Origin: Candidatus Moranbacteria bacterium RIFCSPHIGHO2_01_FULL_55_24
GTDB lineage: Bacteria; Patescibacteriota; Minisyncoccia; Moranbacterales; UBA1568
Reading direction: 5' to 3'
Assembly (NCBI GenBank): GCA_001786575.1
Contig: MFRW01000011.1
Coordinates: forward strand, 22,201-86,200
Length of the DNA stretch: 64,000 nucleotides
Both the position numbers and the translations under genes were made by a program. Numbering within the stretch: position 1 is the first letter of the stretch; every line of letters begins with the position of its first letter. The notes below the pieces were generated by a model. That model had not been told where the DNA came from. It saw only the letters and a list, made by a program, of their open reading frames with translations, and did not search any database. Below are positions 872 through 51,317 of this stretch, piece by piece.

Positions 872-1014
872 AGATTTCCTTCCTTACATGCATTTAAAAG
901 CCTCCATTCCTCTTTATGCAGTATAGGCAAAAAAGAGGGCTCCGTCAAAGCAGCCGTTTCCCCGGAAAATGCGAGGATAAAGCCTCCAAATAAAGCTTCC
1001 TTGGCTTGTTTTTA

Positions 1015-1023
1015 TGGTATACT
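1015..1023 (+). promoter_or_regulatory. extended -10 promoter element TGGTATACT upstream of the ATG at 1034
   Basis: TGnTATACT motif 11 nt upstream of the first ATG of the 847-aa ORF; the same TGGTA-type extended -10 recurs at 9430 and 29655. Confidence 0.4.
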
Positions 1024-1033
1024 ATGGGAGTAT

Positions 1034-3544
1034 ATGGCGGAAAAAAAACGCGAACAAAAAATGCGGGCAATTTCTGATCTCGACCGGGTCATCACCGATA
1101 TTCTCGTAGCGGAAAAACGCTCCAACGAACCGTTCATCAAGACATTCAATTATGTCGGTGAAAACGTTTCGAAACTCGATCTCGGCACCCTGGTCGGGGT
1201 ATTCGAGGTGGACGAAAAGAGCGAAGACTCCGCCTACATCGTCAACTTCCTGGCTTCCGTAGCCAAAAAAGAATATTTCAGCAATCCGCGGCGCGGAGCC
1301 ATCGAGAGTTTCGAAGCGGCGCTTCACAAGATAAATGTCGCATTAGCCGAACTCGTGAAGCACGGCAATATCGCCTGGCTGGGGAAATTCCATGGAGCGC
1401 TCGGCGTATTCGAGAAGAACAACTTCCATTTTTCCGTCAGCGGCGAAGCCGCCATCCTGCTTTTCAGGAATAATTCCTTTGTAGAAATCAGCGAAGGGCT
1501 GGCCTCCCCGGAAGCCCAGGAGCATCCGCTCAAGACGTTCGTAGAAGTTTCAAGCGGACGGCTTATGCTCGGGGATACCCTTATTTTATCCTCCCCGGAA
1601 CTCCAAGCGCTCTTTTCAGAGGACAGTCTCGCGAAAAACCGCGAGCGCCTCGGCATTCCCGGCTTCCGCCAATTCTTGAAGACCGCGCTCGTAAATGAGC
1701 TCGATATGGCCGCGACTCTCGTGGTAGATATCACCGAGAAGGACTTTTCCGCCCAAGAAAAATCCAGCCCCGCTAAACGCAGAGCAAAGAAGGAGGATTC
1801 TCCGGATGCTGCCTCATTCAATCCCTTCAGCCAACAGGCCTTCACCCCGAAGCCGAAAGAACGCTCCGAGGAAGACGTATTCCAGCCGCATGCCGAGCCG
1901 GCGCGTTCCGAATACACCGACAGCAAAACCGGACATATCTATGTCCAAGGGGAACTCCCGGAGGATATCCCGTCCCATCGCGCTTTCTTTGACGAACTCT
2001 CGCTCCGTTTCCAGGGTCTCGCCCTCGTCATCGGAAAATCATCTTCCCAGTGGGGCCGTTCGCTCCGCAAAACAAGGAAGCAGGCAGCGCTCTCGCTCTG
2101 GGTTCTTTCCCGTAATGGGAAGGAAAAGACGCATCAGCTCACCAGAAAGAGCCGGCGCGCTCTGCAGAAGCTTTGGCGCTCGCTTGAGGAGAAACGTCAG
2201 AAGAAAGCAGCTCCCACGGAAACATACTCCCCGGAAACATTCGAAACGCTCCCGGAAGAGCCCTCTTTTGCCGATCTTGATTTCAAAGCGCCCGAAAAAC
2301 CCGCCTCACTCGAAAGAGACCTCGAGGAGCCGTTATCCGACAGACAAGAGACTAGTTTCCGTCCGCAAGCGGCTCCTTTTCTCCCAAAAAGCCGCGAACA
2401 TGGAGCACTCCAGCAGAAGCTCCGCTCCTTTTATACCCAGGAAGGCTCCCGGAGGCCTTCTTCCGTTCCTGGAGAATCACCCTCTCTCCGCCAAGCGCTT
2501 CCAAGAGGAAACACTTTTCTGGCATCCCTCCTTGCTTCAGCCAAAAAAACTCTCCGGAAGACAAGCCTGCTCTTGAGGACTCTTCCTCGAACACTCGCTT
2601 CGTTCGATATCTCTCCTCTCAAGAAGTGGCATCTCGCTCTCGGGCTCGTGATCGCCATCAGTCTTTCGGCTTTTTTCCTCCTCAAAGATGATGGGCTCGA
2701 AAGCCGGAATGCAGACGAGTCGAACCTGAACCCCCAAGAGAATTCCCTCTCTCAAGAAGCAAACGGCGAAAAGAATGCGAACGTTCTCGGAGCGCCGACC
2801 TCTCTCGAAAAAGGGCTGCCTGAAGAAACGCGTCTCGTGACCTTGAATGGCCAGCCCTATGCCGTGACCCGGGATGCTCTCATCGATGTCCGCGAAAACA
2901 AGAGCTACTCTCCCCCGACCGGAGGAAACGCCGTGCGCTTCGCGGCAGCGATGGAAGACCTGCAGCTCATCTTCCTCTTCACCGAAAACAAGCTGGTCTA
3001 TGCCTGGAGTCCTATCAGTAAGACTTTCTCCCAGAATGAGATTGCGCTTCCCGAAAATTCCTCGGTCGGCGGCATCGGGACCTACCTCACCTATCTCTAT
3101 GTATTGGATACTTCGAACGATCAGATCTACCGCTTCCCCCGGGCCGAAGGCGGTTTCGGAGCGCCCACGAACTGGTTCCGAGAATCAGTGACTATAGAAG
3201 AGAATGCCCTTTTTGCCGTCAACGAGAGCATCATCATCACGCTTACGCCGAGCGAGATAAAAGGCTTTTTCCAGGGAAAGACCAATGCGACTTTCGAGAT
3301 GCCTGGAAGCGAAGCTTCCCTCGCAGCGCTTTATACCGATCCTGACACGCCGGAGATCTACGGACTCGACAGCAAAGGGAAACGTATCATCGTCTGGGAT
3401 ACCAGCGGCAAGATCATCGCAGAGTATTTCCATGAGGCGCTTGCCGGAGCCCGCGCACTTTCGGTCGATCCTAAAAGCAAGACTTTCTTCGTAGCCGGGA
3501 GCGATGGGGAAATCCTCTCCTTCTCTCTCGGAAACGGGATCTAG
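1034..3544 (+). CDS. single-pass membrane protein: N-terminal SpoIIE/RsbU-type PP2C-like domain (catalytic motifs partly degenerate), long S/R/K/P/E-rich linker, TM helix, C-terminal extracytoplasmic repeat domain
   Basis: Manual motif alignment of the N-terminus (first 220 aa) to RsbU/SpoIIE PP2C blocks: VGVFEVDEKSEDSAYIVNFLASV vs IGDVSGKGVPAALFMAM; FSVSGEAAILLFRNNSFVEI vs CNAGHNPPLLVRNNGSIELL; LMLGDTLILSSPEL vs LEKGDILLLYTDGV; LDMAATLVVDI vs YDDITCLVVKV. The TM helix is WHLALGLVIAISLSAFFLL. The C-terminus carries repeated Y..D/W.D-like strands. TTG at 1001 is an alternative start; ATG 1034 is preferred. Confidence 0.6.
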   Translation: MAEKKREQKMRAISDLDRVITDILVAEKRSNEPFIKTFNYVGENVSKLDLGTLVGVFEVDEKSEDSAYIVNFLASVAKKEYFSNPRRGAIESFEAALHKINVALAELVKHGNIAWLGKFHGALGVFEKNNFHFSVSGEAAILLFRNNSFVEISEGLASPEAQEHPLKTFVEVSSGRLMLGDTLILSSPELQALFSEDSLAKNRERLGIPGFRQFLKTALVNELDMAATLVVDITEKDFSAQEKSSPAKRRAKKEDSPDAASFNPFSQQAFTPKPKERSEEDVFQPHAEPARSEYTDSKTGHIYVQGELPEDIPSHRAFFDELSLRFQGLALVIGKSSSQWGRSLRKTRKQAALSLWVLSRNGKEKTHQLTRKSRRALQKLWRSLEEKRQKKAAPTETYSPETFETLPEEPSFADLDFKAPEKPASLERDLEEPLSDRQETSFRPQAAPFLPKSREHGALQQKLRSFYTQEGSRRPSSVPGESPSLRQALPRGNTFLASLLASAKKTLRKTSLLLRTLPRTLASFDISPLKKWHLALGLVIAISLSAFFLLKDDGLESRNADESNLNPQENSLSQEANGEKNANVLGAPTSLEKGLPEETRLVTLNGQPYAVTRDALIDVRENKSYSPPTGGNAVRFAAAMEDLQLIFLFTENKLVYAWSPISKTFSQNEIALPENSSVGGIGTYLTYLYVLDTSNDQIYRFPRAEGGFGAPTNWFRESVTIEENALFAVNESIIITLTPSEIKGFFQGKTNATFEMPGSEASLAALYTDPDTPEIYGLDSKGKRIIVWDTSGKIIAEYFHEALAGARALSVDPKSKTFFVAGSDGEILSFSLGNGI

Positions 3545-6015
3545 GCAGCCTCCTGGATCTTGATGCGTTCCAGAATCTCGCTCTTCACGATAGAAGCATC
3601 GCGCCCATAGCGGAGACGCGAGAGCTCTTTTAAGGCATTCGCCACTTCCTGATTGCCATTCGATGGCGGATACGTCTTCATATTGAAAGGCTTCGTGAGC
3701 TCATTGTTGAGAAGGAGCCTCACGAAACAGCGGTAATTGTCTACATTGACCAGGTCCTGCGCGGAAAAGACCGGTGCGAACTGCTTTTCCAGGAATTCCG
3801 CATCATCCGGTCCTACGCGGAAGGAAATGAGCGAACCCACATTCCCGAATACCGCTTTGGATATCTCTTCCTTCAGCTGGCCGATGAACTGGTGTGCCAG
3901 GACCAGGACCAGGCGGTATTTCCGAGCTTCGGAGAGGATCTGTGCGATGGAAGTCGTCGTCACATTCTGAAACTCATCCAAGTAAAGGTAGAAATCCGAA
4001 CGCTCTTCTTCGGGCATATCGACGCGCGACAGAGCCGCCATGAGGATCTTTCCGACGATGATCATACCGAGAAGGCGCGCATTGATCTCTCCCAGACGCC
4101 CTTTGGAGAGATTCACTAAGAGGATTTTCTTCTGGTCCATGACGTCGCGGAAATTGAAGGCGCTCTTCTGTTGCGCGATAATCGGCCGCATCAGGTCGTT
4201 TGAAATGAAAGCGGTGAGCTTCGAAGTGATATAGGGAACCATATTGGCCAGAGCGGCTTCGCCTCCGGCCTTCTCGGCTTCTTTCTGCCAGAAATCCCGT
4301 ACGATCGGGTTCTCGCAGTGGGAGAGTTTCATGCGCCGGAAATTCTCATCCGCAAGCACTTTCGGGATCTCCATGAGCGTCGAACCGCTCTCGGGATGTT
4401 CCATGACCAAGAGCATGGCGTTCCGCATATACTGCTCGAACATCGGGCCTCCCGTCGCCTTCATATCGTAGAGCTGGTCGAAGATGCCGATCATCTCGTT
4501 GATGACGAACGTTTTCTGCTCGGGGTGAGCCGGGTCATACTCGAGCATATTCATACCCAGAGGCTTGCCGGTGTCTGCCGGATCGAAGACGATGACATCT
4601 TCGGCACGCTCTTTCGGGATGGACGCGAGGATATCCTCTATCGCATCGCCATGCGGATCGATGAAGCAAAACCCTTTGCCGGCTCGGGCATCCTTCTTCG
4701 CCATTTCCTGGAGGAAATTCGACTTTCCGACGCCGGTCTGCCCCACCACATACATGTGGCGGCGGCGATCGGCATCCGTGATACGGATCTCCGTCTCCGT
4801 ACCGCGGTAGTCATTGAAGCCGAGGAGCATCCCTTCATTCGGGATGTTGATCGGCGGAGCAGCCGCTCCGGCCTTCAGCCACTTGATCTTAGGCGTAGCC
4901 GTCGTAGAGATCGGGAAGTGGAAAATGCTCGCGAGCTCTTCGGTGTTCAGAAGGAAAGAATGGTCTTCATCGAAATTCCGGAAAACATAGTGGAAAGCCG
5001 CTTCGCGCGTCTTGATCCGCTTCCTGACGCGGAAACGGTTGATATCGTGGTTCTCGAACTGACCGAAGGCGCTCTCCATGTGTCCGAGGATCTCATCGGC
5101 GCGAGACTGGGTATCAGCAGAAGCCAAAAGGCGCAGATTGACGCGGAAGGCGCTCTTGCTCGTCTTCTGGTCGATCGCTTTCACAAGCTCTTCCTCGTGA
5201 GGCGTCAGCATGACAGGCTTCTTCTCGCGATCAAGCGTGCCCTTCTTATTGGCCGGACTAAGAGCGCTCATGATATCCTTTCCCATTTCGTTGCCGGCTC
5301 TCTGCATCGTTTTGCCTTTCTTCAGATCCTGGATCCGCTTGCCTTCCTGGATATGCCGGGCGATCTGCTTGCCCTCTTGGCGCCAGACGGCTCCGGCCGG
5401 AGCGAGCACCAGCTGCATCACCGCGCCTTCGCTCGCGGTGTTGAGCTTGCTTAATGAATTCGATATCCCGTTGAGCGGATCGACCCCGAGATCGCGATAG
5501 GTCACGAGCGGAAGAGCGTGATGATGAGCAAGCTCCAGTTCTGCCACCGCTACCTTGCTCCCCGGCGCGAAAATCGTGTAGTCAGGGACGCGCTCTATGG
5601 TCGCTTCCGGGAAAAAGCTATGCACCTGTTTCTCGACGCTTTCCCGGAAGCGCTTCGGGATGCCGAGATAGAAAAAGATCTCCTCGCTCGAAGAGGGATT
5701 GGCGATTTCGAAAACGATCGTCGGAGCATGATAGAGGAGGCGCGAAAGGAAATTCCCCGGATGCTTCAGATTGGAAAGCGAAACCAGAAGCTGCTCCATG
5801 GCGAGAATCTCTTCTTTCCAAGCATCAGCATTCTGGCCGGCATCCTGCTTGCGGACAACTTGAACGACCTCCAGTTCCATCATGAGCGACTGGTTCACCT
5901 GCCGCCGGAAGCGTATGAAGCTCCTCGCGACCAGAAACCCCCCGCTCCCCAGGGTGACGAACCCCAGGAACCAGGTAAAAGGAATGAAAATACTATTGAA
6001 ATCGAACTGATTCAT
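3541..6015 (-). CDS. membrane-anchored P-loop ATPase of the type IV coupling protein (VirD4/TraG/TraD, TraG-D_C-like) family with an unusual ~420-aa N-terminal domain
   Basis: N-terminal hydrophobic anchor IFIPFTWFLGFVTLGSGGFLVARSFI; Walker A VVGQTGVGKSNFL; Walker B YLYLDEFQNV (the DEF variant typical of T4CPs); downstream LVLAHQFIGQL matches the T4CP xQSxxQL motif. A GGAGG SD lies 4 nt upstream of the ATG. The stop overlaps the convergent gene by 4 nt (CTAG). Confidence 0.6.
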   Translation of the reverse strand: MNQFDFNSIFIPFTWFLGFVTLGSGGFLVARSFIRFRRQVNQSLMMELEVVQVVRKQDAGQNADAWKEEILAMEQLLVSLSNLKHPGNFLSRLLYHAPTIVFEIANPSSSEEIFFYLGIPKRFRESVEKQVHSFFPEATIERVPDYTIFAPGSKVAVAELELAHHHALPLVTYRDLGVDPLNGISNSLSKLNTASEGAVMQLVLAPAGAVWRQEGKQIARHIQEGKRIQDLKKGKTMQRAGNEMGKDIMSALSPANKKGTLDREKKPVMLTPHEEELVKAIDQKTSKSAFRVNLRLLASADTQSRADEILGHMESAFGQFENHDINRFRVRKRIKTREAAFHYVFRNFDEDHSFLLNTEELASIFHFPISTTATPKIKWLKAGAAAPPINIPNEGMLLGFNDYRGTETEIRITDADRRRHMYVVGQTGVGKSNFLQEMAKKDARAGKGFCFIDPHGDAIEDILASIPKERAEDVIVFDPADTGKPLGMNMLEYDPAHPEQKTFVINEMIGIFDQLYDMKATGGPMFEQYMRNAMLLVMEHPESGSTLMEIPKVLADENFRRMKLSHCENPIVRDFWQKEAEKAGGEAALANMVPYITSKLTAFISNDLMRPIIAQQKSAFNFRDVMDQKKILLVNLSKGRLGEINARLLGMIIVGKILMAALSRVDMPEEERSDFYLYLDEFQNVTTTSIAQILSEARKYRLVLVLAHQFIGQLKEEISKAVFGNVGSLISFRVGPDDAEFLEKQFAPVFSAQDLVNVDNYRCFVRLLLNNELTKPFNMKTYPPSNGNQEVANALKELSRLRYGRDASIVKSEILERIKIQEAA

Positions 6016-6038
6016 GAACCCTCCTTTTCACGTATGTG

Positions 6039-6455
6039 TTAGCGCAAAGCGTTCCCCTTATCGAGTGCGGCATGAAACTGCTCCGCAAGCTCATCATGCA
6101 TCATATCGAGCGCATAGAAATCCTTGAGCGAGCGCGCTACTTGGACCGCGTGCGGGACCCCCTTGGTTTCTGCCAGCGAAACGAGGTGCGTGATGCGGCT
6201 TTCCTCATCAAGCGCGGCGGTCCGGTCCGCATCGCTCCTCACTTCCTGAATCGGTGCGACCGGATTCGGGGCATGTGCCTCCACCCTTTTCAAAAGCGAC
6301 TGGAAATCCCTGTTTTCCGCAGGAGCTTCTTCTCTCTTCACCTCATGCTCATAGGAGACAGCGGCTTCCAGCGTCTCTTCACGGATTTCCTCTGCTGGAG
6401 CGTCGAGGATATCCTCCTGTTCATGGTTAATCCCATTGCCGAACTCTTCTGCCAT
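6039..6455 (-). CDS. small acidic hypothetical protein (138 aa), co-operonic with the ATPase
   Basis: ORF with strongly acidic composition (many E/D) and predicted helical character; 23-nt gap to the downstream ATPase gene. Confidence 0.5.
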   Translation of the reverse strand: MAEEFGNGINHEQEDILDAPAEEIREETLEAAVSYEHEVKREEAPAENRDFQSLLKRVEAHAPNPVAPIQEVRSDADRTAALDEESRITHLVSLAETKGVPHAVQVARSLKDFYALDMMHDELAEQFHAALDKGNALR

Positions 6456-6472: not shown

Positions 6473-6790
6473 TTACAGCCCTCCCAGATTTTTCTTCATC
6501 TCTTCCGTGAATTCCTGCGCGACTTCGCGCACAAAGACATTGTATCCCGGAATGCTCTTTTCGAAAAAGGCTTCGATTTCTTCCGCAGAAGCGCCCCGGT
6601 CCAGAAGACCTTCGTATTCCGTCACGCCGCTCTCGCCGATTTTTTCCATCGTCGCGAGAAAGAGACGTTTGATGAACGCTTCTCCCATCTGTTCGAGCAG
6701 CGCATCCCGGCGCTCTTCGGGCACCTGTTCAAGCTGGAACTCTTCTGCAAACTGCTTCTTCAATGCTTGGAGATCTGGAGTCATACGCAA
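6473..6790 (-). CDS. small acidic hypothetical protein (105 aa), co-operonic
   Basis: ORF with acidic, helical composition (EEFQLEQVPEERRDALLEQMGEAF...); 12-17 nt gaps to its neighbours. Confidence 0.5.
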   Translation of the reverse strand: MRMTPDLQALKKQFAEEFQLEQVPEERRDALLEQMGEAFIKRLFLATMEKIGESGVTEYEGLLDRGASAEEIEAFFEKSIPGYNVFVREVAQEFTEEMKKNLGGL

Positions 6791-6802
6791 AAAATATATG
6801 GT

Positions 6803-9406
6803 TTAGAATTTGAAATCGAAATCCGGATCAGCCATGCGGCGGCGCATGATGAGCGTCGTGATCCGGAGCGTGTAGCTATTGATGTCTTCGCGGCTCTTGA
6901 GATCCGCTGCTTTGCCGAACTGTTCCCGTGCCGCATCGGTAAACGATGCCAGCCGCTCCATCTGGCTCGGGTGGAGAGGATTCAGGCGGCGGCTGTAATC
7001 ATATTCCGGGTTCTCCAGCAGATGTTCATGCACCCGGAGCACCCGGTCCACCTTGATGCCTCCGAGGTTCTTCGCTCCGAAGCTGAATTGATCCGTTCCG
7101 AGAGACTGGATTTCCGGCGTTTCGAAGATATGCATGCGCGTCTGGATCAGCTCTTCTTTGGCTGTGCTGAAAAGATCCGGATGCTCCTTGAAAAAGGCTT
7201 TGTGGTCGCTCAATTCCTGGAGCTCCCGCGCGCTCAAGTCCTGCTCCGACCAAGGAAGACTCTTTTCTCCTGTCCCTCCGAGATTTTCCGGGAGGAGATT
7301 TTCCGGCTTTCCTTCGGCCTGGCCCGGGGTATCTACGGGCGTCTCATGATTCTCCAAATAGGTATCGAGATCGAGCGAGGTTTTCGCTACTGCTTCCACC
7401 GGCTCTGCTCCAGCCGCTTCGAGAGCTGCTACAGCCTTGCCATCGAGAATCGCTTGAGTCTCTTCCGGAGAGAGAATCTTCTCAAGCGAGAGCGTATCTC
7501 CGACATGGATAGCATTGATATCACCGCTCGGGAATCCGGCTGCCTGGAGTTCTTCCGGCGAAAGAGTCGGTAGTTTATTGGCAATCGCATTCTCAAGCGC
7601 CTGGATGACGCGTGCCTTCTCTCCCGGATCCATATCGGCCGGCAGACGCGCTTCGAGCACTCCCCAGAGGCCCTTGCCGCTATCGGCAGCGGTTACCAGA
7701 TGTTCCGCGAGCAGAGCCTTCGGAGACGTTTCTGCTACCGCCTGCGCCACGTTGTCAGGATCAGAGATTCCTTCTGCAATAGCATGCGGAACTCCTTCCG
7801 CTGGAAGTTCCGGGGCTATCGGAGAAGGAACCGCCTCATCAGCCAGATCAGGAGCCGGCTCGGCTGCGATCGCTTCATCAAGGGCGTTTTGCGGCGGCGT
7901 TTCAGGTGCAAGTGCCGGCTCGGTTGCCTCTGCTCCCGGCGTATCCGCTTGCAGAATATCCGAAGCGAAAGCTATTCCCGTACCGAAGGTTACAGCTGCT
8001 CCCTTGCGGAAAAGCGCGGCCCGCTTGGCTTGCTGCATCTTGCTGTCGAGCGAAGCGATGTCTTTCGTCAGAAGTTCTTTGAGTCTTTCAAAAGATTCAG
8101 CGGTCGGCAGAGCTTCGGAAAAAGTGTGTGTCTCTCTGGTAAGCGCCAAGAGTTCTTCATCGATCTCCTTTTCAGCCGCTTTCTCGGCCCGTTTCTCCGC
8201 ATATCCTTGCATGAGGACTTCTCCCGTTACTGCGCCGCCGGCACCGGCCATGAAGCGCCGTAATGTCACGATTGCGCCTCCCAGCGCGGCTCCGCCAGAA
8301 AGAGAGAGCGCTCCTGCGCCAGCGAAGCAAGCCGCTGCCAAAGCGAACTTCTGCGGACGTGAAAGGCTGTTATAGGCCTTGCCAAGACGCTCGTATGCAT
8401 CCAGGGCCCTCCCGCCCAGACCTTTCCGCTCCATGCGCACATCAGTCCGCGTTGCTACGAGATTCTTCGCTTCCTCGAATTTGAAATAGCGGAGGAGCGC
8501 CGCCATCTCGTGCTTGAGTTCGGTTCCTTTCAGTCCGCTTTTCTTCAGCTGCTCCAGCTCGAGCTCCTGAAGAGCAGTCAGTGCGCCCTCGTACTGCTCC
8601 CTCCGATAGCGCGTATCCTGGTCCTCCTCCGTGTCGCTCTTCATGCGGAAAAACGCCCGGAGCTGCTTCCAGGCATGTGATTTTTCGTAGTCTTCTTCCG
8701 CGAAGCGCCTCCGCATATCGGAAACCTCCTCCCGGCGGAGAGCGATCTCTTCGTTAAGATTCCTGGCCGGAACGGATTCCTTTTCTTTCTCGAGAGACTC
8801 GACAGACGCCGGTTCGGCTTCAGTCGGCTTCGGAACCTCCTCGGTCTGCGCTTCCGGCTCGGGAGCGGATTCAGGCTTCACGGCGTTCCCCTCTTCCCGG
8901 TCGGAAACTTCCTCCGCAACCAGAGGTATCTCGACACCAGGAACAGTCTCTTCCTGCTTTGAAGGCTTTTTCCCGCGCCGCCGCAGCGAAAGTATCTTTC
9001 CTTCCTCCGCATCCGGCATCGGCTCCGAAGGCATGGTCTCCGGCTGTGGCGTTTCCGGGCCCGAAGACTGCTCTTCTCCCTTAGGATGTTTCAAAAATGT
9101 GTACTTTTCCCTCACCTCGGACTGGCTTCCGAAAAGGAGCGTGCTTCCTGGGTGGAGCGCATCGTCTTCGCCTTCTACCACATGCGCTTCCACACCTCCT
9201 TGATCCGAGACGCTGTCGATACGTATCTCCGTGCCTTCCGCAGAAGTGAATCGATCTCCGACACGGAGCCCCTCTCCTTCCGCTGATTTTTCGGGCAAGT
9301 TCTGTTCGGGATTTTTCCCAGATGCTTTTTCCGGAGAATCAAAAACAGCCTCCGCTGATTCTGCTTCAGTCATTTTCCTTGCGCCGGCAGCTTCTCCTTC
9401 GGGCAT
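6803..9406 (-). CDS. large (867 aa) acidic, largely low-complexity protein with glycine/alanine-rich hydrophobic segments and a C-terminal globular region; first gene of the operon
   Basis: N-terminal ~330 aa E/P/S-rich; hydrophobic G/A-rich stretch FALAAACFAGAGALSLSGGAALGGAIVTLRRFMAGAGGAVTG and a second one, AAVTFGTGIAFASDIL; A/P/E-rich linker; ~250-aa C-terminal domain with no recognisable motif. Confidence 0.55.
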   Translation of the reverse strand: MPEGEAAGARKMTEAESAEAVFDSPEKASGKNPEQNLPEKSAEGEGLRVGDRFTSAEGTEIRIDSVSDQGGVEAHVVEGEDDALHPGSTLLFGSQSEVREKYTFLKHPKGEEQSSGPETPQPETMPSEPMPDAEEGKILSLRRRGKKPSKQEETVPGVEIPLVAEEVSDREEGNAVKPESAPEPEAQTEEVPKPTEAEPASVESLEKEKESVPARNLNEEIALRREEVSDMRRRFAEEDYEKSHAWKQLRAFFRMKSDTEEDQDTRYRREQYEGALTALQELELEQLKKSGLKGTELKHEMAALLRYFKFEEAKNLVATRTDVRMERKGLGGRALDAYERLGKAYNSLSRPQKFALAAACFAGAGALSLSGGAALGGAIVTLRRFMAGAGGAVTGEVLMQGYAEKRAEKAAEKEIDEELLALTRETHTFSEALPTAESFERLKELLTKDIASLDSKMQQAKRAALFRKGAAVTFGTGIAFASDILQADTPGAEATEPALAPETPPQNALDEAIAAEPAPDLADEAVPSPIAPELPAEGVPHAIAEGISDPDNVAQAVAETSPKALLAEHLVTAADSGKGLWGVLEARLPADMDPGEKARVIQALENAIANKLPTLSPEELQAAGFPSGDINAIHVGDTLSLEKILSPEETQAILDGKAVAALEAAGAEPVEAVAKTSLDLDTYLENHETPVDTPGQAEGKPENLLPENLGGTGEKSLPWSEQDLSARELQELSDHKAFFKEHPDLFSTAKEELIQTRMHIFETPEIQSLGTDQFSFGAKNLGGIKVDRVLRVHEHLLENPEYDYSRRLNPLHPSQMERLASFTDAAREQFGKAADLKSREDINSYTLRITTLIMRRRMADPDFDFKF

Positions 9407-27766: not shown

Positions 27767-28792
27767 TTATTGAAGCTGCTTACGGAGGAATTCTGCCGAG
27801 ACTTCCGGCAGGATAGTCGAGACTTCGATCCCGGTAGAGAGCTCGAAGCCCGCCCAAGTGGCCGTGCGCGGGATGATCTCTATATGCCACCGGTAGTGAG
27901 GATAATCGCTTCCGTCACAAGGAGCGGTGTGGATATAGAAGTTATACCCGGGATCATTGAGTCCTTGATGAAGGGCCCGCAAGCTGGCCTGAAGCGCCTC
28001 GGCGCAGGCGAATTTCTCTTCATCGGTAATGCGCTCGAAGTACGGGTTATGGCGCTTGCCGACTACCCATATTTCGAATGCGGCTCGCGAAGCGAACGGG
28101 CAGAATGCCACGAAGTGTTCATTCTCGAAAATCAGCCGTTTCCTGGCTTCCAGTTCATGCGCCACGATAACACTGAAAACGTCTTGCTTCGTGCTCCGAT
28201 AGTAGCGTTCGGCACCGGCAAGATCCAAAGAAAGCCCCGGAGAAACGACTGGAATCGCGATGAGTTGGGAGTGCGGATGGAGAACCGATGCTCCGGAACC
28301 CTTGCCGTGATTATGGAAAATCTGGATGTATTTGACCGTCTTCTTGTTCATGAGCGCCAAGTAGCGCTCCTGATAAGCGTCGATCACTTCAGCGACCTGC
28401 CAGGTATCGAGGAGCGCGAGCGAACGCTTTGGGTCTCGGGTGACGATTATCTCATGGTGTCCGACACCGCTCATCGCGAAGTATGGGCCTTCCGAGAGAT
28501 CTTTCGCCGTCCGGCTGTTTTGCACGACCGGAAACTTATTCGGAAAAACCCGCAAGCTCCAATCACCGTCATCGCGCCGATAGATAAGGACGTCCTTTTC
28601 TTGTCCGCTCGCTTCAGGGTCTTCAAAAGGATCGCTCTTAGGCTCTTGTACCGGCTGTTCCGCACTCACGAAATCGTCCGGCCGTTTCGCCCGCGCCGTC
28701 GCTATCACCACCCAATCCCCCGTGACGATATCCTGGCGGATTTCCGATTCAGAGGGATGTGCTTTTTTGTTTTCTCCTTTTTTGACTGGCAT
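27767..28792 (-). CDS. galT: galactose-1-phosphate uridylyltransferase (HIT superfamily, GalT type)
   Basis: HPHSQLIAIPVV (GalT HPH motif) and FENEHFVAFCPFASRAAFEIWV. Confidence 0.85.
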   Translation of the reverse strand: MPVKKGENKKAHPSESEIRQDIVTGDWVVIATARAKRPDDFVSAEQPVQEPKSDPFEDPEASGQEKDVLIYRRDDGDWSLRVFPNKFPVVQNSRTAKDLSEGPYFAMSGVGHHEIIVTRDPKRSLALLDTWQVAEVIDAYQERYLALMNKKTVKYIQIFHNHGKGSGASVLHPHSQLIAIPVVSPGLSLDLAGAERYYRSTKQDVFSVIVAHELEARKRLIFENEHFVAFCPFASRAAFEIWVVGKRHNPYFERITDEEKFACAEALQASLRALHQGLNDPGYNFYIHTAPCDGSDYPHYRWHIEIIPRTATWAGFELSTGIEVSTILPEVSAEFLRKQLQ

Positions 28793-28834
28793 TTTTTTCT
28801 TTTTGGTTTCGAAAGGAATGAGCCTGGCCGAACT

Positions 28835-29605
28835 TTACGCTTCAGCTTGCGATTTGCGATACTCGCGGACACGGTAAGCTCCTGTAAGGAAACGCCACCT
28901 TGTCTTGAAGAGATCGATGATCACCTGGATGAACCCGTTCTTGCCGGTAAGAGAGACAGTCGATCCTTCTTCGTTCATCCAGCGTACCGGCATCTGTTTC
29001 ACTCGGAACCCGAGCTTTTCAGAAAGCGCGATGAGCTCGAAGTCGAATCCGAAACGGTCCACTACCATGCGATTCGCGACTGCTTCGGCCGCCTTGGCCG
29101 AGAGTATCTTGAACCCGCACTGGGTATCCGGATACGCCCACAGTCCGAGAACGATTCGGATCAGCCAATTCCCCATATCGCCCATGATCTCGCGGTGTTT
29201 CGGCTGGTGTACCTGGATGAATGCGCCTTCTATGTCGCGGGAGCCGATAACCACATCGTAGCCTTCTTCGAATTGCGGGAGGAATGCGTCGAGATGAGTA
29301 ATCGAAGTAGAGCCGTCAGCATCGAGAAATACCCGGTACCGGCCCGTGGCTTCGAGAAGCCCTTGGCGGACGACGTAGCCCTTGCCATGGTTCTCCTTGT
29401 TATCGATAACGCGTACATGCGGGATCTGGAGGGCGTAATTGCGCGCGATTTCAGCAGTATTGTCCGGGGAGCCATCGACGACAATGAGGATTTCGTAGGT
29501 GTAATTCTTGCTTTTGAGGTATTTGTCGATTTCGAGAAGATTGCGTCCGATACGCTCACCTTCCTTATAGGAAGGTATGATGACAGAGAGAAACGGCTGT
29601 TCCAT
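28835..29605 (-). CDS. GT2 family glycosyltransferase, polyprenol-phosphate sugar synthase-like (Dpm1/Ppm1/GtrB-like)
   Basis: LSVIIPSYKEGERIGRNL, DGSPDNT and DADGST motifs (GT-A DXD). Confidence 0.85.
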   Translation of the reverse strand: MEQPFLSVIIPSYKEGERIGRNLLEIDKYLKSKNYTYEILIVVDGSPDNTAEIARNYALQIPHVRVIDNKENHGKGYVVRQGLLEATGRYRVFLDADGSTSITHLDAFLPQFEEGYDVVIGSRDIEGAFIQVHQPKHREIMGDMGNWLIRIVLGLWAYPDTQCGFKILSAKAAEAVANRMVVDRFGFDFELIALSEKLGFRVKQMPVRWMNEEGSTVSLTGKNGFIQVIIDLFKTRWRFLTGAYRVREYRKSQAEA

Positions 29606-29646
29606 AGGTCAAGAGAAGAATTCAAAAAATTATGGATTCCAAGAAT

Positions 29647-29674
29647 ATTTTACCATAATCATGCGTATTTCCAA
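29647..29674 (-). promoter_or_regulatory. candidate promoter (TTGGAA-16-TGGTAAAAT, extended -10) for the GT2-galT-tpiA-fba-gap operon
   Basis: Reverse complement of 29669-29674 is TTGGAA; rc of 29647-29655 is TGGTAAAAT. Confidence 0.45.
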
Positions 29675-29709
29675 AGAAAAAAGGAGGTTATCTATCGGAA
29701 TAACCTCCT
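29675..29709 (-). terminator. rho-independent terminator downstream of ruvX
   Basis: Perfect 10-bp inverted repeat AGGAGGTTAT/ATAACCTCCT (8-nt loop) followed on the minus strand by UUUUUUCUUUGG. Confidence 0.6.
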
Positions 29710-29745
29710 CATTCGAGAGTGCTCAAGGAGCTCCTGTCCCTCTTC

Positions 29746-30168
29746 TCAAAAATCAGCGTCGGCAGCCTCGCTCTCGCCCTTATCCAGCCACTCCTGAAGG
29801 AGGATACGAGCAGCTTCCGCATCGTCGTATGCGCTGATGCTCTTCTTCTGCGTTTCAGCCAGATTCGCCTGGGCCATCTTGCTCGTGAACATCTCGTTCT
29901 GCATGATGACTCGCACGCCGAGTTCCTTTTCCAGTTTCTCCCGGAATGCCTGGATTTCCGCTCCGGTATTCGCTTCCGGATGCTCCGGATCGCCCAAGAT
30001 GACCGTTCCGATCTCTTCCATGAGGACCACTTCCCCGAGGGTCGGCCAGAAATTCGTATCCATCGGCCAGATGCCGTAAGCGACAGCGATCCTGGTTTCC
30101 GCGTGCGCCAAAGCCACCCCGATTTTGGCCTTCCCCCAGTCGATTCCTAAGAAGTTCTTGGATTCCAT
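29746..30168 (-). CDS. ruvX: Holliday junction resolvase-like putative pre-16S rRNA nuclease YqgF/RuvX
   Basis: NFLGIDWGKAKIGVALAHAETRIAVAYG (RNase H-like fold N-terminus); start placed at the internal ATG (MESKNF). Confidence 0.85.
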   Translation of the reverse strand: MESKNFLGIDWGKAKIGVALAHAETRIAVAYGIWPMDTNFWPTLGEVVLMEEIGTVILGDPEHPEANTGAEIQAFREKLEKELGVRVIMQNEMFTSKMAQANLAETQKKSISAYDDAEAARILLQEWLDKGESEAADADF

Positions 30169-48994: not shown

Positions 48995-49852
48995 TCAACG
49001 GGCAGGAGCATAGGTACACCGGCTGGTCAATTCCAGACAGCGGTAGCGGATGTCCCCCTCTTCGTCCGTGCGCCGGACAAGCACCGACCGTTCACGCAGA
49101 CGCGCCAGGACCCCGGGGTCGGGATGTCCATAGCTGTTTTCGCCTACGGAGAGGACCGCTTCCTCCGGGCCGATCCGCTCCAGGAAAGCCGCGCTCGATG
49201 AATACTTCGATCCATGGTGCGCTACTTTGAGCACCGTTACCGGCCTCTCTTCCGGAAGCGCCTTTTCCTCGCCTGGGAGATCGCCGGTCAAAAGAAAACT
49301 CGTTTCTCCGAACTGGAAGCGCGCAACGATACTGCCTTCATTCGATTCGGTACCGCTCTCTTCCGCAAGCGGACGGAGCGGATACTCGAGCGTCAGCGTT
49401 CCGCCTTCGGGGAAGACGATTTCTGTTCCGCGTGCGATAGCCTGCATCTCGCCGGTCTCTTCGGCTGCGAGCGTCTCGAAGAGACGCGAGGTTTCCGTCT
49501 CGCTTGTGTCTCCGTTCGTGAAGACAGAAAGGACTCGGTAGGCCCGCAAGAGCTCCGGGAATCCGCCGATATGGTCGCTGTCCGGATGAGTGGCGATAAG
49601 CGTTTCGATCTGCCTGTCCCAGAAAGGGATGTGTCTTCCCAAGCGGGCCAAGAGGACTTTTCCGCTTCTCCCGCCATCGATCACTACCTGGTACTCCCCT
49701 TGCTGGATAAGGATGGCATCGCCTTGGCCGACATCAAGAAAGACGATGTCTGTCCTTCCAGGCTCGGCATGTTTCCCAAAAGGGAGCCAGACGAGACTGC
49801 AGACGAGAACCGAAAGAAGCCCGCCGAGGAGCCACCAAAAATGCTTCTGCAT
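48995..49852 (-). CDS. ComEC C-terminal-type metallo-beta-lactamase domain protein with an N-terminal membrane anchor
   Basis: TM FWWLLGGLLSVLVCSLVW, then DIVFLDVGQGDAILIQ and LIATHPDSDHIGG; overlaps the upstream comEC ORF by about 119 nt in another frame. Confidence 0.75.
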   Translation of the reverse strand: MQKHFWWLLGGLLSVLVCSLVWLPFGKHAEPGRTDIVFLDVGQGDAILIQQGEYQVVIDGGRSGKVLLARLGRHIPFWDRQIETLIATHPDSDHIGGFPELLRAYRVLSVFTNGDTSETETSRLFETLAAEETGEMQAIARGTEIVFPEGGTLTLEYPLRPLAEESGTESNEGSIVARFQFGETSFLLTGDLPGEEKALPEERPVTVLKVAHHGSKYSSSAAFLERIGPEEAVLSVGENSYGHPDPGVLARLRERSVLVRRTDEEGDIRYRCLELTSRCTYAPAR

Positions 49853-51317
49853 ACCAGAGACGTTTACGCTCGCGCAAGCGCGCAAGACAGAAAGTTACAA
49901 GAAGAGCATACCATATGAGCAGGAAGGCGAAAGGAAACGGCGGCAGCTCGAAAGCGATCATCGCGCGGCTTCCGAAGAACTCGGCGAAATGGGTAATGAG
50001 AGAGAGCGGCACATACGCTACCCAAGAGAAGAGCGGGGTAGCTACAGGGAAAGCTCCTCCGAAAAAAGCTACGGCAAGGCTTCCTGCCATAGCGAATGGT
50101 ACCAACGGCAGGAGAACGATATTGGCGATGAGTGAAAACCAGGAGAGGAGACCGAAGTGATAGGCGATAAGCGGCAGGACGAAAAGCTCGACGAAGAGCG
50201 TCATGCGGAAGACTTCACGGATTGCGGCGCCAGAAAAACTCTCTCCCGTCCCTTCTCCCGGTCTTGCGCCGAAAAGGATCCCTGCGAGCGCCAGAAAAGA
50301 GAGCTGGAAACCGATGTCGTACCGGAGAAGAAGCGGGTTCGAGAGGAGCATCGCCGCTGCCGCAAGGCCGAGCAGAAAGAACGGCCGTGCCATCCTGCCC
50401 TGATGAATGGCCATAAAGACCCCGAAAGCCATGATACCTGCCCGGAGCGCCGAAGCCGGAGCCCCCACCAGCATGACAAACAGCCAGATCCCGACCGCCA
50501 CGAATATGAGCGCTTGGCGCCGCCAGAGACCGCTTGAGAGACCCAAGAAAAGACAGAGTTCGGCTACCAGCATGATGTTATAGCCTGACACCGCCACGAT
50601 ATGCGTCATCCCGATGCGCTCGAAAAAGCCTTCGTTCCTGGCGTCCATATAGCTGCTGCCACCTAAGAGAAGGCCCTTGGCAAGCCCTGCCTCCGGTTCC
50701 GGAAGCGCCTCCCGCAAAACCTGCTCGGTAGCCCCTCGGAAAAAGGAAAGGGCGCCGAAAAATCTCCCCGTAGGATCCGGCGGCAGAATCTCTTGCCGTT
50801 CCCCCTTGGGGCAGAGAAAGCCTATGCCGCGGCGTGCCAGAAAGAAGCGGTAATCGAATGTCTCGCTCCGATTCTCGGGAAGTTCAAGCACGCAAGCAAA
50901 CAGGAAGCGATCGCCGAAAGCGACCGATTCTGAAAGATTCGTCCGCCAGAGTATGCGTTCTTCGGGACAGGTCCGCCCCGGAGAACAGGAAACGGTTTCA
51001 AGTCCGACCTCCTGATAAGCATCTTTCCGCTCCGGAAATCCGATGACGCGTACTGTTCCGGCAAACGTGGGTTCGGGGAGGCGAAGCGACTGCCAATGCT
51101 CTACCTCTTCTGCCGCGCGAACGCCGCCGAAGAGAAAACTTATGAAAAAGAAGAGCGAGAGAAGAAGCAGCTCCCTCCGAAGAAAAACCAGCGCAGCCAC
51201 CAGTGCGACTGCGGAAAAAAGAAAAGCGTGCTGGAGCACGCTTCCGAAAAATGATCCGAATGCTGTCCCCAAGAGAAACCCTGCCGTTACGCTTCCGATA
51301 ATCAGAGCGGCGCGCAT
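49734..51317 (-). CDS. comEC: DNA internalisation competence protein ComEC/Rec2, membrane (DUF4131 + Competence) part
   Basis: Multi-pass membrane protein with HIVAVSGYNIMLV and the other Competence-domain motifs. Confidence 0.8.
   Translation of the reverse strand: MRAALIIGSVTAGFLLGTAFGSFFGSVLQHAFLFSAVALVAALVFLRRELLLLSLFFFISFLFGGVRAAEEVEHWQSLRLPEPTFAGTVRVIGFPERKDAYQEVGLETVSCSPGRTCPEERILWRTNLSESVAFGDRFLFACVLELPENRSETFDYRFFLARRGIGFLCPKGERQEILPPDPTGRFFGALSFFRGATEQVLREALPEPEAGLAKGLLLGGSSYMDARNEGFFERIGMTHIVAVSGYNIMLVAELCLFLGLSSGLWRRQALIFVAVGIWLFVMLVGAPASALRAGIMAFGVFMAIHQGRMARPFFLLGLAAAAMLLSNPLLLRYDIGFQLSFLALAGILFGARPGEGTGESFSGAAIREVFRMTLFVELFVLPLIAYHFGLLSWFSLIANIVLLPLVPFAMAGSLAVAFFGGAFPVATPLFSWVAYVPLSLITHFAEFFGSRAMIAFELPPFPFAFLLIWYALLVTFCLARLRERKRLWYAEAFLVAPRRASFGSRLQSRLAPFWETCRAWKDRHRLS

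Follow-up and report, generated by a model that had tools for sequence, protein, structure and literature searches.

A two-domain coupling-protein-type ATPase of Moranbacteria with a predicted VirB4-like N-terminal domain and a small conserved partner

Within the 64-kb stretch of Moranbacteria DNA analysed here (the window), four genes form a tight string on the minus strand: they encode, in this order, an 867-aa protein, a DUF5663 protein, a 138-aa protein and an 824-aa ATPase, separated by gaps of 12, 17 and 23 nt. A sequence-only reading had reported the last of these as an 824-residue ORF. Its size and coordinates hold with one amendment, namely that the gene runs on the minus strand; the plus-strand reading of 3541..6015 was rejected because its translation contains many stops. 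The genes and other landmarks of the window are as follows.

3541..6015, minus strand: 824-aa ATPase ORF (ORF list and translation), laid out as a DUF8128 N-terminal domain plus a T4CP-type ATPase
6015, minus strand: its start codon, ATG
6020..6026, minus strand: Shine-Dalgarno sequence AAGGAGG, 4 nt before the ATG, read off the sequence
6039..6455, minus strand: 138-aa partner gene, 23 nt upstream of the ATPase gene
6063-6197, minus strand: conserved C-terminal helical module of the partner, residues 87-131
6473..6790, minus strand: DUF5663 gene (Pfam PF18908), in the same tight string
6803..9406, minus strand: first gene of the string; its 867-aa product is acidic, of low complexity and has hydrophobic segments (ORF list)
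48140: the single tRNA of the window, 42 kb from the ATPase gene
49734-51317: ComEC

The 824-aa ORF is identical to a protein (P0001) present in public metagenomes on contigs of up to 214 kb. It has 4,424 homologs at E<=1e-3, the best 120 of which are 69-100% identical to it and 802-843 aa long, so the ORF is far beyond chance. No ATPase paralog is encoded within the window, as blastp against all its ORFs returned nothing below E=0.7. Within its family, which was already catalogued, this gene is nothing out of the ordinary; the value of the results below lies in the annotation of the family as a whole. The parts of the protein to which they refer are these.

5914..5991, minus strand: single N-terminal TM helix, approximately residues 9-34 (hydropathy; AF2 models a long helix at 6-44)
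4840..5883, minus strand: N-terminal domain, approximately residues 45-392, matching Pfam DUF8128; its predicted alpha/beta fold is VirB4-NTD-like
5206..5334, minus strand: Lys-rich low-confidence insert within the N-terminal domain, approximately residues 228-270 (pLDDT, consensus)
4912..4953, minus strand: conserved linker motif LLNTEELASIFHFP, residues 355-368 (two family alignments)
4720..4743, minus strand: Walker A GQTGVGKS, residues 425-432, aligned to the TrwB P-loop
4135..4521, minus strand: all-alpha insertion in the nucleotide-binding domain, approximately residues 499-627 (AF2, hhalign)
3970..3990, minus strand: Walker B YLYLDEF, residues 676-682 (D680, E681, F682), aligned to TrwB LWLFIDEL
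3919..3930, minus strand: EARK, residues 696-699, invariant in alignments of 46 diverse members and of 119 members
3874..3894, minus strand: HQFIGQL, residues 708-714, aligned to TrwB GLQSTSQL
3547..3651, minus strand: C-terminal helical hairpin, residues 789-823 (AF2 helices 789-803 and 807-823), kept in the family consensus

The C-terminal half of the protein (approximately residues 395-790) is built as a nucleotide-binding domain of the TrwB type into which an all-alpha domain is inserted. Three Pfam families score above their gathering cut-offs on the ATPase core: TrwB_AAD_bind (PF10412, 34 bits against 20.5, residues 613-728), T4SS-DNA_transf (PF02534, 22.8 against 20.1) and TraG-D_C (PF12696, 24.7 against 22). 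A profile search against PDB retrieved TrwB (8.5e-8) and DotL (5.7e-5), and no VirB4 chains up to E=10. Moreover, hhalign aligned the family profile with TrwB over 268 columns at 95.7% probability (E 8.7e-9), spanning Walker A, the all-alpha domain and Walker B. In the AF2 model there is no beta strand between those at 474-477 and 631-635, and helices make up most of residues 499-627; the hhalign alignment runs through this region, which is the counterpart of the TrwB all-alpha domain. NCBIfam T4CP models all fell far below their cut-offs, the best being TIGR03743 with 33.5 bits against 366.

The motifs on which the sequence-only reading relied, namely a Walker A at about residue 430, a Walker B ending in DEF and HQFIGQL, are all where it had put them. 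HQFIGQL is the counterpart of the T4CP Q-x-x-x-QL motif. Across 46 diverse family members K431, D680, E681, R698, Q709 and Q713 are invariant, and this conservation of all the catalytic residues predicts an active enzyme. EARK, judged by its invariance, is a candidate arginine finger or sensor. Neither an FtsK gamma domain nor a Pfam FtsK_SpoIIIE match was found in the protein, nor were the marks of HerA, an N-terminal HAS-barrel and an accompanying nuclease or effector.

For residues ~40-400, single-sequence and profile searches found no match in an earlier Pfam release, NCBIfam or PDB sequences, which agrees with the earlier description of residues ~40-420 as motif-less. The newer Pfam release, on the other hand, does have a family there: DUF8128 (PF26449), which comprises over 2,000 clusters at 50% identity, is matched by the identical protein and by all 120 relatives listed, a membership taken from precomputed annotation. 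No paper in the literature searched names DUF8128.

Structure prediction followed by Foldseek revealed a VirB4-type N-terminal domain in the predicted fold. The full-length AF2 model, made without templates, is collinear with full-length TrwK (about 900 aligned columns, E 3e-16), and TrwK chains are its top full-length matches. To our knowledge, full-length VirB4 structures, released in 2022 or later, all post-date AlphaFold2 training. Thus, the DUF8128 half (approximately residues 45-392) is predicted to fold like the N-terminal domain of VirB4, a likeness that has not been described before. The sequence-only reading had named a clean full-length match to a characterised family such as VirB4/TrbE as what would refute it; such a match exists at the level of fold and is lacking in sequence. 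Similarity of the N-terminal domain to VirB4 is undetectable by hhalign against R388 TrwK (sequence from NC_028464) or a Bacillus AAA_10 VirB4, so shared descent of the DUF8128 and VirB4 N-terminal domains rests on predicted structure. Comparison with VirB4/TrwK of R388 (PDB 7o42, 8rtd) and with the VirB4 C-terminal domain 4ag5 leads to the same contrast, as the sequence likeness stops at the P-loop.

Could the protein then be a divergent VirB4-type assembly ATPase, a second paralog in which DEF and QxxxQL are convergent or incidental? Its length (824 aa, against 823 for TrwK), the same two-domain order and the lead of TrwK chains among full-length Foldseek matches are what such a paralog should display. 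However, the VirB4 Pfam families PF03135 and PF12846 do not match it at E<0.01, and hhalign gives 6.4% for R388 TrwK, confined to the P-loop, and 0.3% for the Bacillus VirB4, against the 95.7% for TrwB. Neighbours of the VirB3, VirB6 and VirB8 types, with which VirB4 is encoded, were not found beside the ATPase gene. Moreover, a Bacillus plasmid encodes both a homolog and a VirB4, and a published ortholog typed as t4cp1 comes from a genome with a bona fide VirB4 alongside TrsD and VirB3 (both discussed below). We therefore regard a VirB4 paralog as very unlikely.

In the Lys-rich insert of the N-terminal domain pLDDT falls below 50 at residues 234-246 and 252-265, and much of the stretch has no majority residue in the consensus, with L270 conserved in at least 90% of sequences. 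In the linker motif, E360, H366 and P368 are invariant or nearly so.

An N-terminal membrane anchor had been proposed, and hydropathy indeed reveals one hydrophobic helix. It is predicted to anchor the ATPase in the membrane in the lineage of the window. The basic stretch RSFIRFRRQ directly follows this helix; by the positive-inside rule, it implies an N-out/C-in topology in which both large domains would be cytoplasmic. TrwB of R388 (PDB 1e9r) is built differently, as it has two TM helices followed at once by the nucleotide-binding domain, whereas the DUF8128 ATPase carries a single TM helix, absent from the fused forms examined (described next), and an extra domain of ~350 residues.

The small acidic protein encoded directly upstream is a conserved companion of the ATPase that has not been described before. 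It is present in 59 of 77 related loci, as a separate gene directly upstream in 30 and as an in-frame fusion to the ATPase N-terminus in 29. Its N-terminus is acidic and probably disordered, and its C-terminal module carries the conserved motif LAxxKG..A..IA..L.D.Y.LD..HD.L. In the fused forms that were looked at the partner stands in place of the membrane helix, which is absent from all nine. The partner family has 189 members, the named ones being from Patescibacteria, and no Pfam match was found among the 120 listed. Unlike VirB3, to which it is unrelated, the partner has no TM segment. In 11 partner-less loci a 168-aa protein is encoded at -5 nt; it was considered as a substitute and dismissed for lack of detectable homology to the partner.

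In the window and in all related loci the ATPase gene is embedded in housekeeping chromosome. One setting is the end of the spc operon, where SecY-Adk-Map is followed by the ATPase gene and then by Ndk and RNase J; others are CysRS-DnaB-YbaB-RecR, GtrA-DnaX and RmuC. No T4SS genes are present among the annotated ORFs of the window, and no relaxase was found either there or in the related loci, in which respect the DUF8128 ATPase differs from TrwB, VirD4 and TraG. A T4SS pilin pair lies near the ATPase in 1 of 84 loci (L007), and a search of all loci with these pilins, the hydrolase and the other genes around it recovered the pilins from that locus alone. The gene is chromosomal and vertically inherited in Patescibacteria, its product being 69-79% identical across Moranbacteria and about 42% between classes.

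These data also bear on the idea that an integrated conjugative element, a prophage or an anti-phage defence system with a HerA, DptH or MADS-like ATPase carried the gene as cargo or left it behind as a remnant. Homologs do occur on plasmids and phages, phrog_5156 matches at E 3e-90, and the C-terminal domain gives a PADLOC mad8 hit (1.7e-14) and weak HerA matches. Against this, the neighbourhood holds no integrase, relaxase, T4SS, phage genes or other MADS or Dnd components, the tRNA is 42 kb away, housekeeping synteny is conserved and the gradient of identity has the pattern of vertical descent. The mad8 match is confined to the generic ATPase core, and on the PADLOC matches being of this kind the defence reading was rejected. 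We consider an origin of this sort extremely improbable.

Relatives outside Patescibacteria show that the domain pair is old and widely distributed. Proteins of 885-913 aa annotated as 'DUF87 domain-containing' on Bacillus plasmids, such as WP_144625398.1 of B. subtilis (NZ_OX419581.1) and WP_128472464.1 (NZ_CP035190.1), are full-length homologs. WP_144625398.1 aligns by hhalign across both domains at 99.95% (E 4.6e-38, 665 columns), and these proteins share with the ATPase both domains and the L..EEL....P linker motif. They differ in being encoded on plasmids, where their genes open a conjugation gene set with a Tcp-like T4SS, and in having neither a TM helix nor a small-partner homolog; the partner HMM found no match in the plasmid loci of homologs. 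The WP_144625398.1 gene lies directly upstream of one annotated 'replication-relaxation family protein' and also upstream of TcpD, TcpE and an AAA_10 VirB4. We know of no characterised member of this group. The T4CP of pLS20 (p48, 786 aa, two TM helices) was considered as an equivalent and set aside, since its architecture is different; the gene order differs as well.

On the haloarchaeal plasmid NZ_CP135526.1, the two domains are encoded in separate, overlapping genes. A 391-aa hypothetical protein is homologous to the DUF8128 domain (hhalign 98.9%, E 2e-17), and its gene overlaps the start of the next one, which encodes a T4CP-like ATPase, a 1026-aa 'TraM recognition domain' protein with a long C-terminal extension. 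The linker motif aligns in these homologs too. In viruses, phrog_5156 is a full-length profile match (residues 97-817), and tblastn identified homologs in the Bacillus phages CP-51, G (gp156), JL and Shanette that cover up to 81% of the protein; these differ in their viral context and share 21-25% identity. The sequence-only reading had left a choice between a novel fusion and a divergent T4CP subfamily. The first is not borne out: the pair is already a Pfam DUF, and it recurs in the T4CP counts of Patescibacteria, in Bacillus plasmids and phages and, as two genes, in haloarchaea. The second is the right one, because in sequence the core is coupling-protein-like and not VirB4-like, as Pfam, the hhalign result for TrwB and the published t4cp1 call agree.

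That call comes from Quinonero-Coronel et al. 2025, whose orphan T4CPs are the set of genes to which the DUF8128 ATPase belongs. In that paper (PMC12102498), the ortholog KKP71086.1, which is 66% identical to the 824-aa ATPase, is listed as an orphan VirD4-type T4CP (CONJScan t4cp1, 93.6% coverage, 'VirB4 proximity: No'), and its genome is given a separate VirB4-TrsD-VirB3 cluster. In a sister genome, ~210 genes separate the ATPase from the true VirB4, which is found with TrsD and VirB3. The paper counts 5,713 VirD4-type homologues in 2,918 of 3,035 Patescibacteria genomes (96%), only 148 of them near virB4, and VirB4 in 2,417 genomes; in the literature these T4CP homologues are called orphans and are given no role. 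Also reported are only 109 relaxases in the 3,035 genomes, and chromosomal patescibacterial T4SS clusters that encode no T4CP (PMC12102498, PMC10633639). In the text available, PMC12102498 makes no mention of an N-terminal domain, a VirB4-like fold, a small partner or plasmid and phage relatives.

Taken together, the gene is probably a patescibacterial member of a two-domain branch of T4CPs (VirD4/TrwB). By analogy with TrwB, VirB4 and HerA, its product may form a hexameric, ATP-driven ring at the cytoplasmic face of the membrane, in which docking or regulation would fall to the VirB4-like N-terminal domain together with the small partner. The N-terminal domain of R388 VirB4 contacts VirB4 itself, VirB3 and VirB8. 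Homologs of this kind, together with the gene fusion, are what points to a hexamer, a docking role and an interaction with the partner. We infer an origin of the family among the conjugative coupling proteins of plasmids from monoderms and archaea, followed by exaptation in Patescibacteria, where relaxases are almost absent, as a hexameric translocase or substrate receptor. We tentatively favour a role in trans as substrate receptor and energiser of the chromosomal T4SS. A T4SS-independent role in DNA handling is nearly as likely. The T4SS link is weak, because T4SS genes essentially never adjoin the gene, the fused forms looked at lack an anchor, and in S. epibionticum a t4cp homologue, which may or may not be a DUF8128 protein, is reported not to be essential whereas the T4SS is (PMC12102498).

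A stronger form of independence would make the protein a housekeeping motor, translocating DNA or another polymer in chromosome maintenance, segregation, repair or DNA uptake, as do FtsK, HerA or ComFA, with T4CP ancestry of historical interest only. In favour of this, core genes surround the gene at every locus, the window also encodes ComEC, the fused forms appear soluble, large Bacillus phages have homologs without a T4SS, and in the literature exaptation is raised as a possibility and T4CP homologs are counted in more genomes than VirB4, as noted above. However, roughly two copies against one in incomplete MAGs would by arithmetic yield that very excess, the small partner is the only specific neighbour conserved across classes, no NurA-like nuclease or recombinase partner was found, and the FtsK hallmarks are missing. 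Such a motor seems to us rather unlikely.

A bolder proposal derives T4CPs from a two-domain ATPase resembling VirB4 and holds that DUF8128 proteins keep this ancestral design, with docking through the N-terminal domain, as part of a near-universal machine of Patescibacteria. We judge it improbable. If it were true, the N-terminal domain would dock the coupling ATPase directly on the VirB4/VirB3/VirB8 platform, for example by replacing an outer VirB4 protomer, and the ATPase with its partner would be a near-universal core machine that feeds an essential relaxase-less T4SS or imports host material.

Patescibacteria account for a large share of bacterial diversity and depend on host cells, and the single patescibacterial model that has been studied relies on a T4SS for which neither a coupling protein nor a relaxase is recognised. 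To the published orphans the present analysis adds, for one family, a predicted VirB4-type N-terminal domain, a partner protein dedicated to the ATPase and, in many lineages, fused to it, and full-length relatives on Bacillus plasmids that also bear T4SS genes. Fold, partner and plasmid relatives offer a testable handle in the form of surfaces to mutate, a pair to co-purify and a tractable plasmid model. The result also bears on the kinship of the two signature T4SS ATPases, VirB4 and VirD4.

The first two genes of the string are more narrowly distributed. The 867-aa protein has no Pfam, NCBIfam, PADLOC or PHROG match and no similarity to the 715-aa protein in the equivalent position of locus L007, and was on the latter ground rejected as a conserved component; it is conserved in close relatives only. 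The DUF5663 protein is likewise a lineage-restricted neighbour, since only 8 of the loci retrieved have a homolog of it no more than 8 kb from the ATPase.

The sequence-only reading had reported an ATPase open reading frame at positions 3541-6015. The ORF list and translation confirmed a real gene of 824 codons (3541..6015), but on the minus strand; the plus-strand reading was ruled out, as that frame is full of stops. An AAGGAGG sequence at 6020-6026 precedes the ATG at 6015. The three ATPase motifs claimed earlier are all found in the minus-strand product:

Residues 425-432: Walker A, GQTGVGKS
Residues 676-682: Walker B, YLYLDEF
Residues 708-714: HQFIGQL

A single hydrophobic helix at the N-terminus (approximately residues 9-34) is followed by basic residues; the predicted topology, obtained by applying the positive-inside rule to this helix, places the two large domains on the cytoplasmic side. 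No paralog was found in the 64-kb window. The G+C content of the window is 55.5%, which seems high for a CPR genome. Many long antisense ORFs are also present (e.g. 378 aa at 4318-5454, plus strand, opposite the ATPase gene, and 675 aa at 27770-29797); as genes they were rejected, being composition artefacts.

The Pfam domains TrwB_AAD_bind, T4SS-DNA_transf and TraG-D_C match the protein above gathering cut-offs. Against PDB, the family profile matched TrwB (8.5e-8) and also DotL, with no VirB4 up to E=10. Alignment with hhalign to R388 TrwB reached 95.7% probability over 268 columns, running from Walker A via the all-alpha region to the Q motif; the corresponding values were 6.4% for R388 TrwK/VirB4, at the P-loop only, and 0.3% for a Bacillus AAA_10 VirB4. 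Judged by sequence, the ATPase half is thus placed with coupling proteins, and the earlier suggestion of a divergent T4CP subfamily was right, with Pfam, the PDB profile search and the TrwB alignment in agreement. The catalytic residues K431, D680, E681, R698, Q709 and Q713 do not vary among 46 diverse family members, from which we conclude that the enzyme is probably active.

As for the N-terminal half, local Pfam, NCBIfam and PDB sequence searches matched only the C-terminal half, just as the sequence-only reading had found no recognisable motif in residues ~40-420. The proposal of an unknown fold did not survive modelling. AlphaFold2 models, built without templates from 119 aligned sequences (42-79% identity), had a mean pLDDT of 86.1 for the full-length protein, and a pLDDT of 88.6 with a pTM of 0.87 for residues 40-392 modelled alone. 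The N-terminal-half model has the fold of the TrwK N-terminal domain; because its match list includes no RecA-like ATPase, the match is to that domain and not to the TrwK ATPase domain. When Foldseek was run with the full model, full-length TrwK chains ranked first (E 3e-16), collinear over ~860-940 columns. The known full-length VirB4 structures were released in 2022 or later, after AlphaFold2 had been trained, and no templates were used, so the resemblance is not a template copy. A full-length VirB4 match, which had been named as evidence against a coupling protein, therefore exists in predicted fold but not in sequence, where hhalign gave TrwK its 6.4%. The fold match and the T4CP sequence affinity together indicate that the protein combines the VirB4 domain plan with the sequence signature of a coupling-protein ATPase.

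The alternative that the protein is simply a divergent VirB4 was rejected on the sequence evidence and on the co-residence of a true VirB4. In the genome encoding the ortholog KKP71086.1 (66% identical), a separate VirB4, KKP70874.1, lies with TrsD and VirB3 ~210 genes away, and a second T4CP is present. A recent survey lists KKP71086.1 in Table S3 as a T4CP (profile t4cp1, 93.6% coverage, 'VirB4 proximity: No'; Quinonero-Coronel et al. 2025, PMC12102498) and counts 5,713 VirD4-type homologues in 2,918 of 3,035 genomes, only 148 of them near virB4. Precomputed Pfam matches assign PF26449 (DUF8128), followed by T4CP domains, to the identical protein and to all 120 listed relatives (69-100% identical, 802-843 aa). 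Residues 1-420 alone retrieved 2,033 clusters at E<=1e-3 among 1.84 billion cluster representatives, and full-length DUF8128-ATPase proteins are ~750-930 aa, with a few longer. A scan of one genome per species confirmed at least 599 relatives; 80 loci were kept, from Moran-, Uhr-, Falkow-, Komeili-, Magasanik-, Nomura-, Taylor-, Wolfe- and Zambryskibacteria, Paceibacterota and others. The literature already counts this family among orphan T4CPs and Pfam already models it as a DUF; the protein is an ordinary representative of it. No paper in the literature library searched mentions the name DUF8128, and no description was found of its VirB4-like fold, of the partner and fusions described below, or of the plasmid, archaeal and phage link.

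The plasmid and archaeal side of that link emerged from tblastn searches of 72,556 plasmids, in which the C-terminal half matched 480 records (Bacillus 215, Streptomyces 89, Clostridium 20, Sulfolobus 11, and, among several haloarchaeal genera, Natrinema 13 and Haladaptatus 9); where a gene was annotated beneath the match, its label was mostly T4CP, TraM-recognition or DUF87. The N-terminal half matched 33 records, several beside an ATPase match on the same plasmid. On the B. subtilis plasmid NZ_OX419581.1, the family profile covers both domains of a 913-aa 'DUF87' protein (99.95%, E 4.6e-38, 665 columns), whose gene is directly upstream of one for a 'replication-relaxation family protein', which we take to be a relaxase, with TcpD, TcpE and an AAA_10 VirB4 after it; this gene order recurs on a B. 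licheniformis plasmid. The two domains are split on the haloarchaeal plasmid NZ_CP135526.1, where a 391-aa gene encodes the N-terminal domain by itself (98.9%, E 2e-17) and overlaps the 5' end of a T4CP-like gene of 1026 aa. Unlike the Moranbacteria protein, these Bacillus and haloarchaeal homologs have neither a TM helix nor a small-partner homolog. The full-length PHROGs family phrog_5156 also matched (E 3e-90), and Bacillus phages CP-51, G, JL and Shanette carry relatives. These relatives show the domain pair to be ancient, occurring fused or split, and on the Bacillus plasmids, at least, its gene stands where a conjugative coupling protein would be encoded. A novel fusion, as proposed earlier, is not what this catalogued family represents.

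The gene 23 nt upstream (6039..6455, minus strand) encodes a 138-aa partner whose acidic N-terminus varies and whose C-terminal helical module, LAxxKG..A..IA..L.D.Y.LD..HD.L, is conserved. An HMM of the module detected it in 59 of the 77 loci with enough upstream sequence: in 30 as a gene of its own, next to the ATPase gene on its upstream side and in the same orientation (gaps -3 to 184 nt), and in 29 fused in frame to the ATPase N-terminus, giving proteins of ~900-970 aa. The fused proteins examined have no N-terminal TM helix. The partner family has 189 detectable members, the organism-named ones all from Patescibacteria, and the 120 listed have no Pfam match. Repeated gene fusion is strong evidence that partner and ATPase act together; we infer that they contact each other. 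In locus L028 (782-1288) and 10 other loci where the partner was undetected, mostly ABY1-type (Uhr-, Komeili-, Magasanikbacteria), a different ~168-aa protein without Pfam match lies directly upstream (median offset -5 nt); its charged N-terminus is similar to the partner's, with no detectable homology. In another related locus, L062 (2484-5978), an apparent 1164-aa ORF joins a methionine-aminopeptidase-like N-terminus to partner and ATPase across an N run, probably an assembly or masking artefact rather than a genuine fusion.

The window belongs to the core chromosome of a Moranbacteria-like patescibacterium (CPR), encoding SecY, EF-G, an EPSP-synthase-family enzyme (PF00275), MurD, ComEC, HisRS and LytR; the ATPase gene is flanked by holB, a POTRA protein, two PMT-type glycosyltransferases, RmuC, PrmC, RF-1 and L31. 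No relaxase, integrase, VirB4 or VirB6 is among its annotated ORFs. Cargo of an ICE, prophage or defence system was rejected as an explanation: mobile and defence genes are absent nearby, synteny is conserved and the identity pattern is vertical. PADLOC mad8 and HerA matches involve the generic ATPase core only.

Our tentative preference is that the protein serves the chromosomal T4SS in trans, as its receptor and energiser. The enzyme would form a hexameric ATP-driven ring, by analogy with TrwB, VirB4 and HerA, tethered to the membrane in this lineage by its single helix. The VirB4-like domain and the partner may together form a module for docking or regulation; VirB4 of R388 uses its N-terminal domain for the VirB4-VirB4, VirB3 and VirB8 contacts (PMC12857230). 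The family would descend from conjugative coupling proteins of the monoderm type and have been exapted later. PMC12102498 states that exaptation 'cannot be ruled out' and reports relaxases as almost absent in Patescibacteria. The S. epibionticum T4SS cluster has no recognisable coupling protein (PMC10633639). Close behind comes a T4SS-independent DNA-handling role, in itself rather unlikely, to which the invariably housekeeping neighbourhood, the soluble fused forms and the phage homologs point, as would the S. epibionticum t4cp, reported as non-essential (PMC12102498), if it is a DUF8128 protein.

The ATPase gene is last in a tight same-strand string of an 867-aa protein, DUF5663, the partner and the ATPase (gaps 12, 17 and 23 nt). 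The 867-aa protein (6803-9406, minus strand) is acidic and Pro/Glu/Ala-rich, with internal Gly/Ala-rich hydrophobic segments; it has no family match in any library searched and does not resemble the 715-aa protein that occupies its position in L007, a related locus. Convergent with the ATPase gene and overlapping it by 4 nt is an 847-aa ORF (1001-3544, plus strand) with no Pfam, NCBIfam or PHROG match and a weak PADLOC one (PD-T4-6, E 1e-3). Its C-terminal third looks repeat-rich by eye, and a convergent ~830-aa homolog (cluster 19) occurs in 8 related Moranbacteria-type loci. The ComEC homolog (Competence and DUF4131 domains; 49734-51317, minus strand) bears on the idea of the ATPase in DNA uptake; it is 44 kb from the ATPase gene, with no evidence of linkage. 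T4SS-type genes lie close to the ATPase gene in just one of 84 loci, L007 (14657-18579; Patescibacteria MAG GCA_029210775.1), where a 1033-aa Amidase_2/SpoIID hydrolase and a pair of PF18895 T4SS pilins are encoded 2-6 kb downstream of it.
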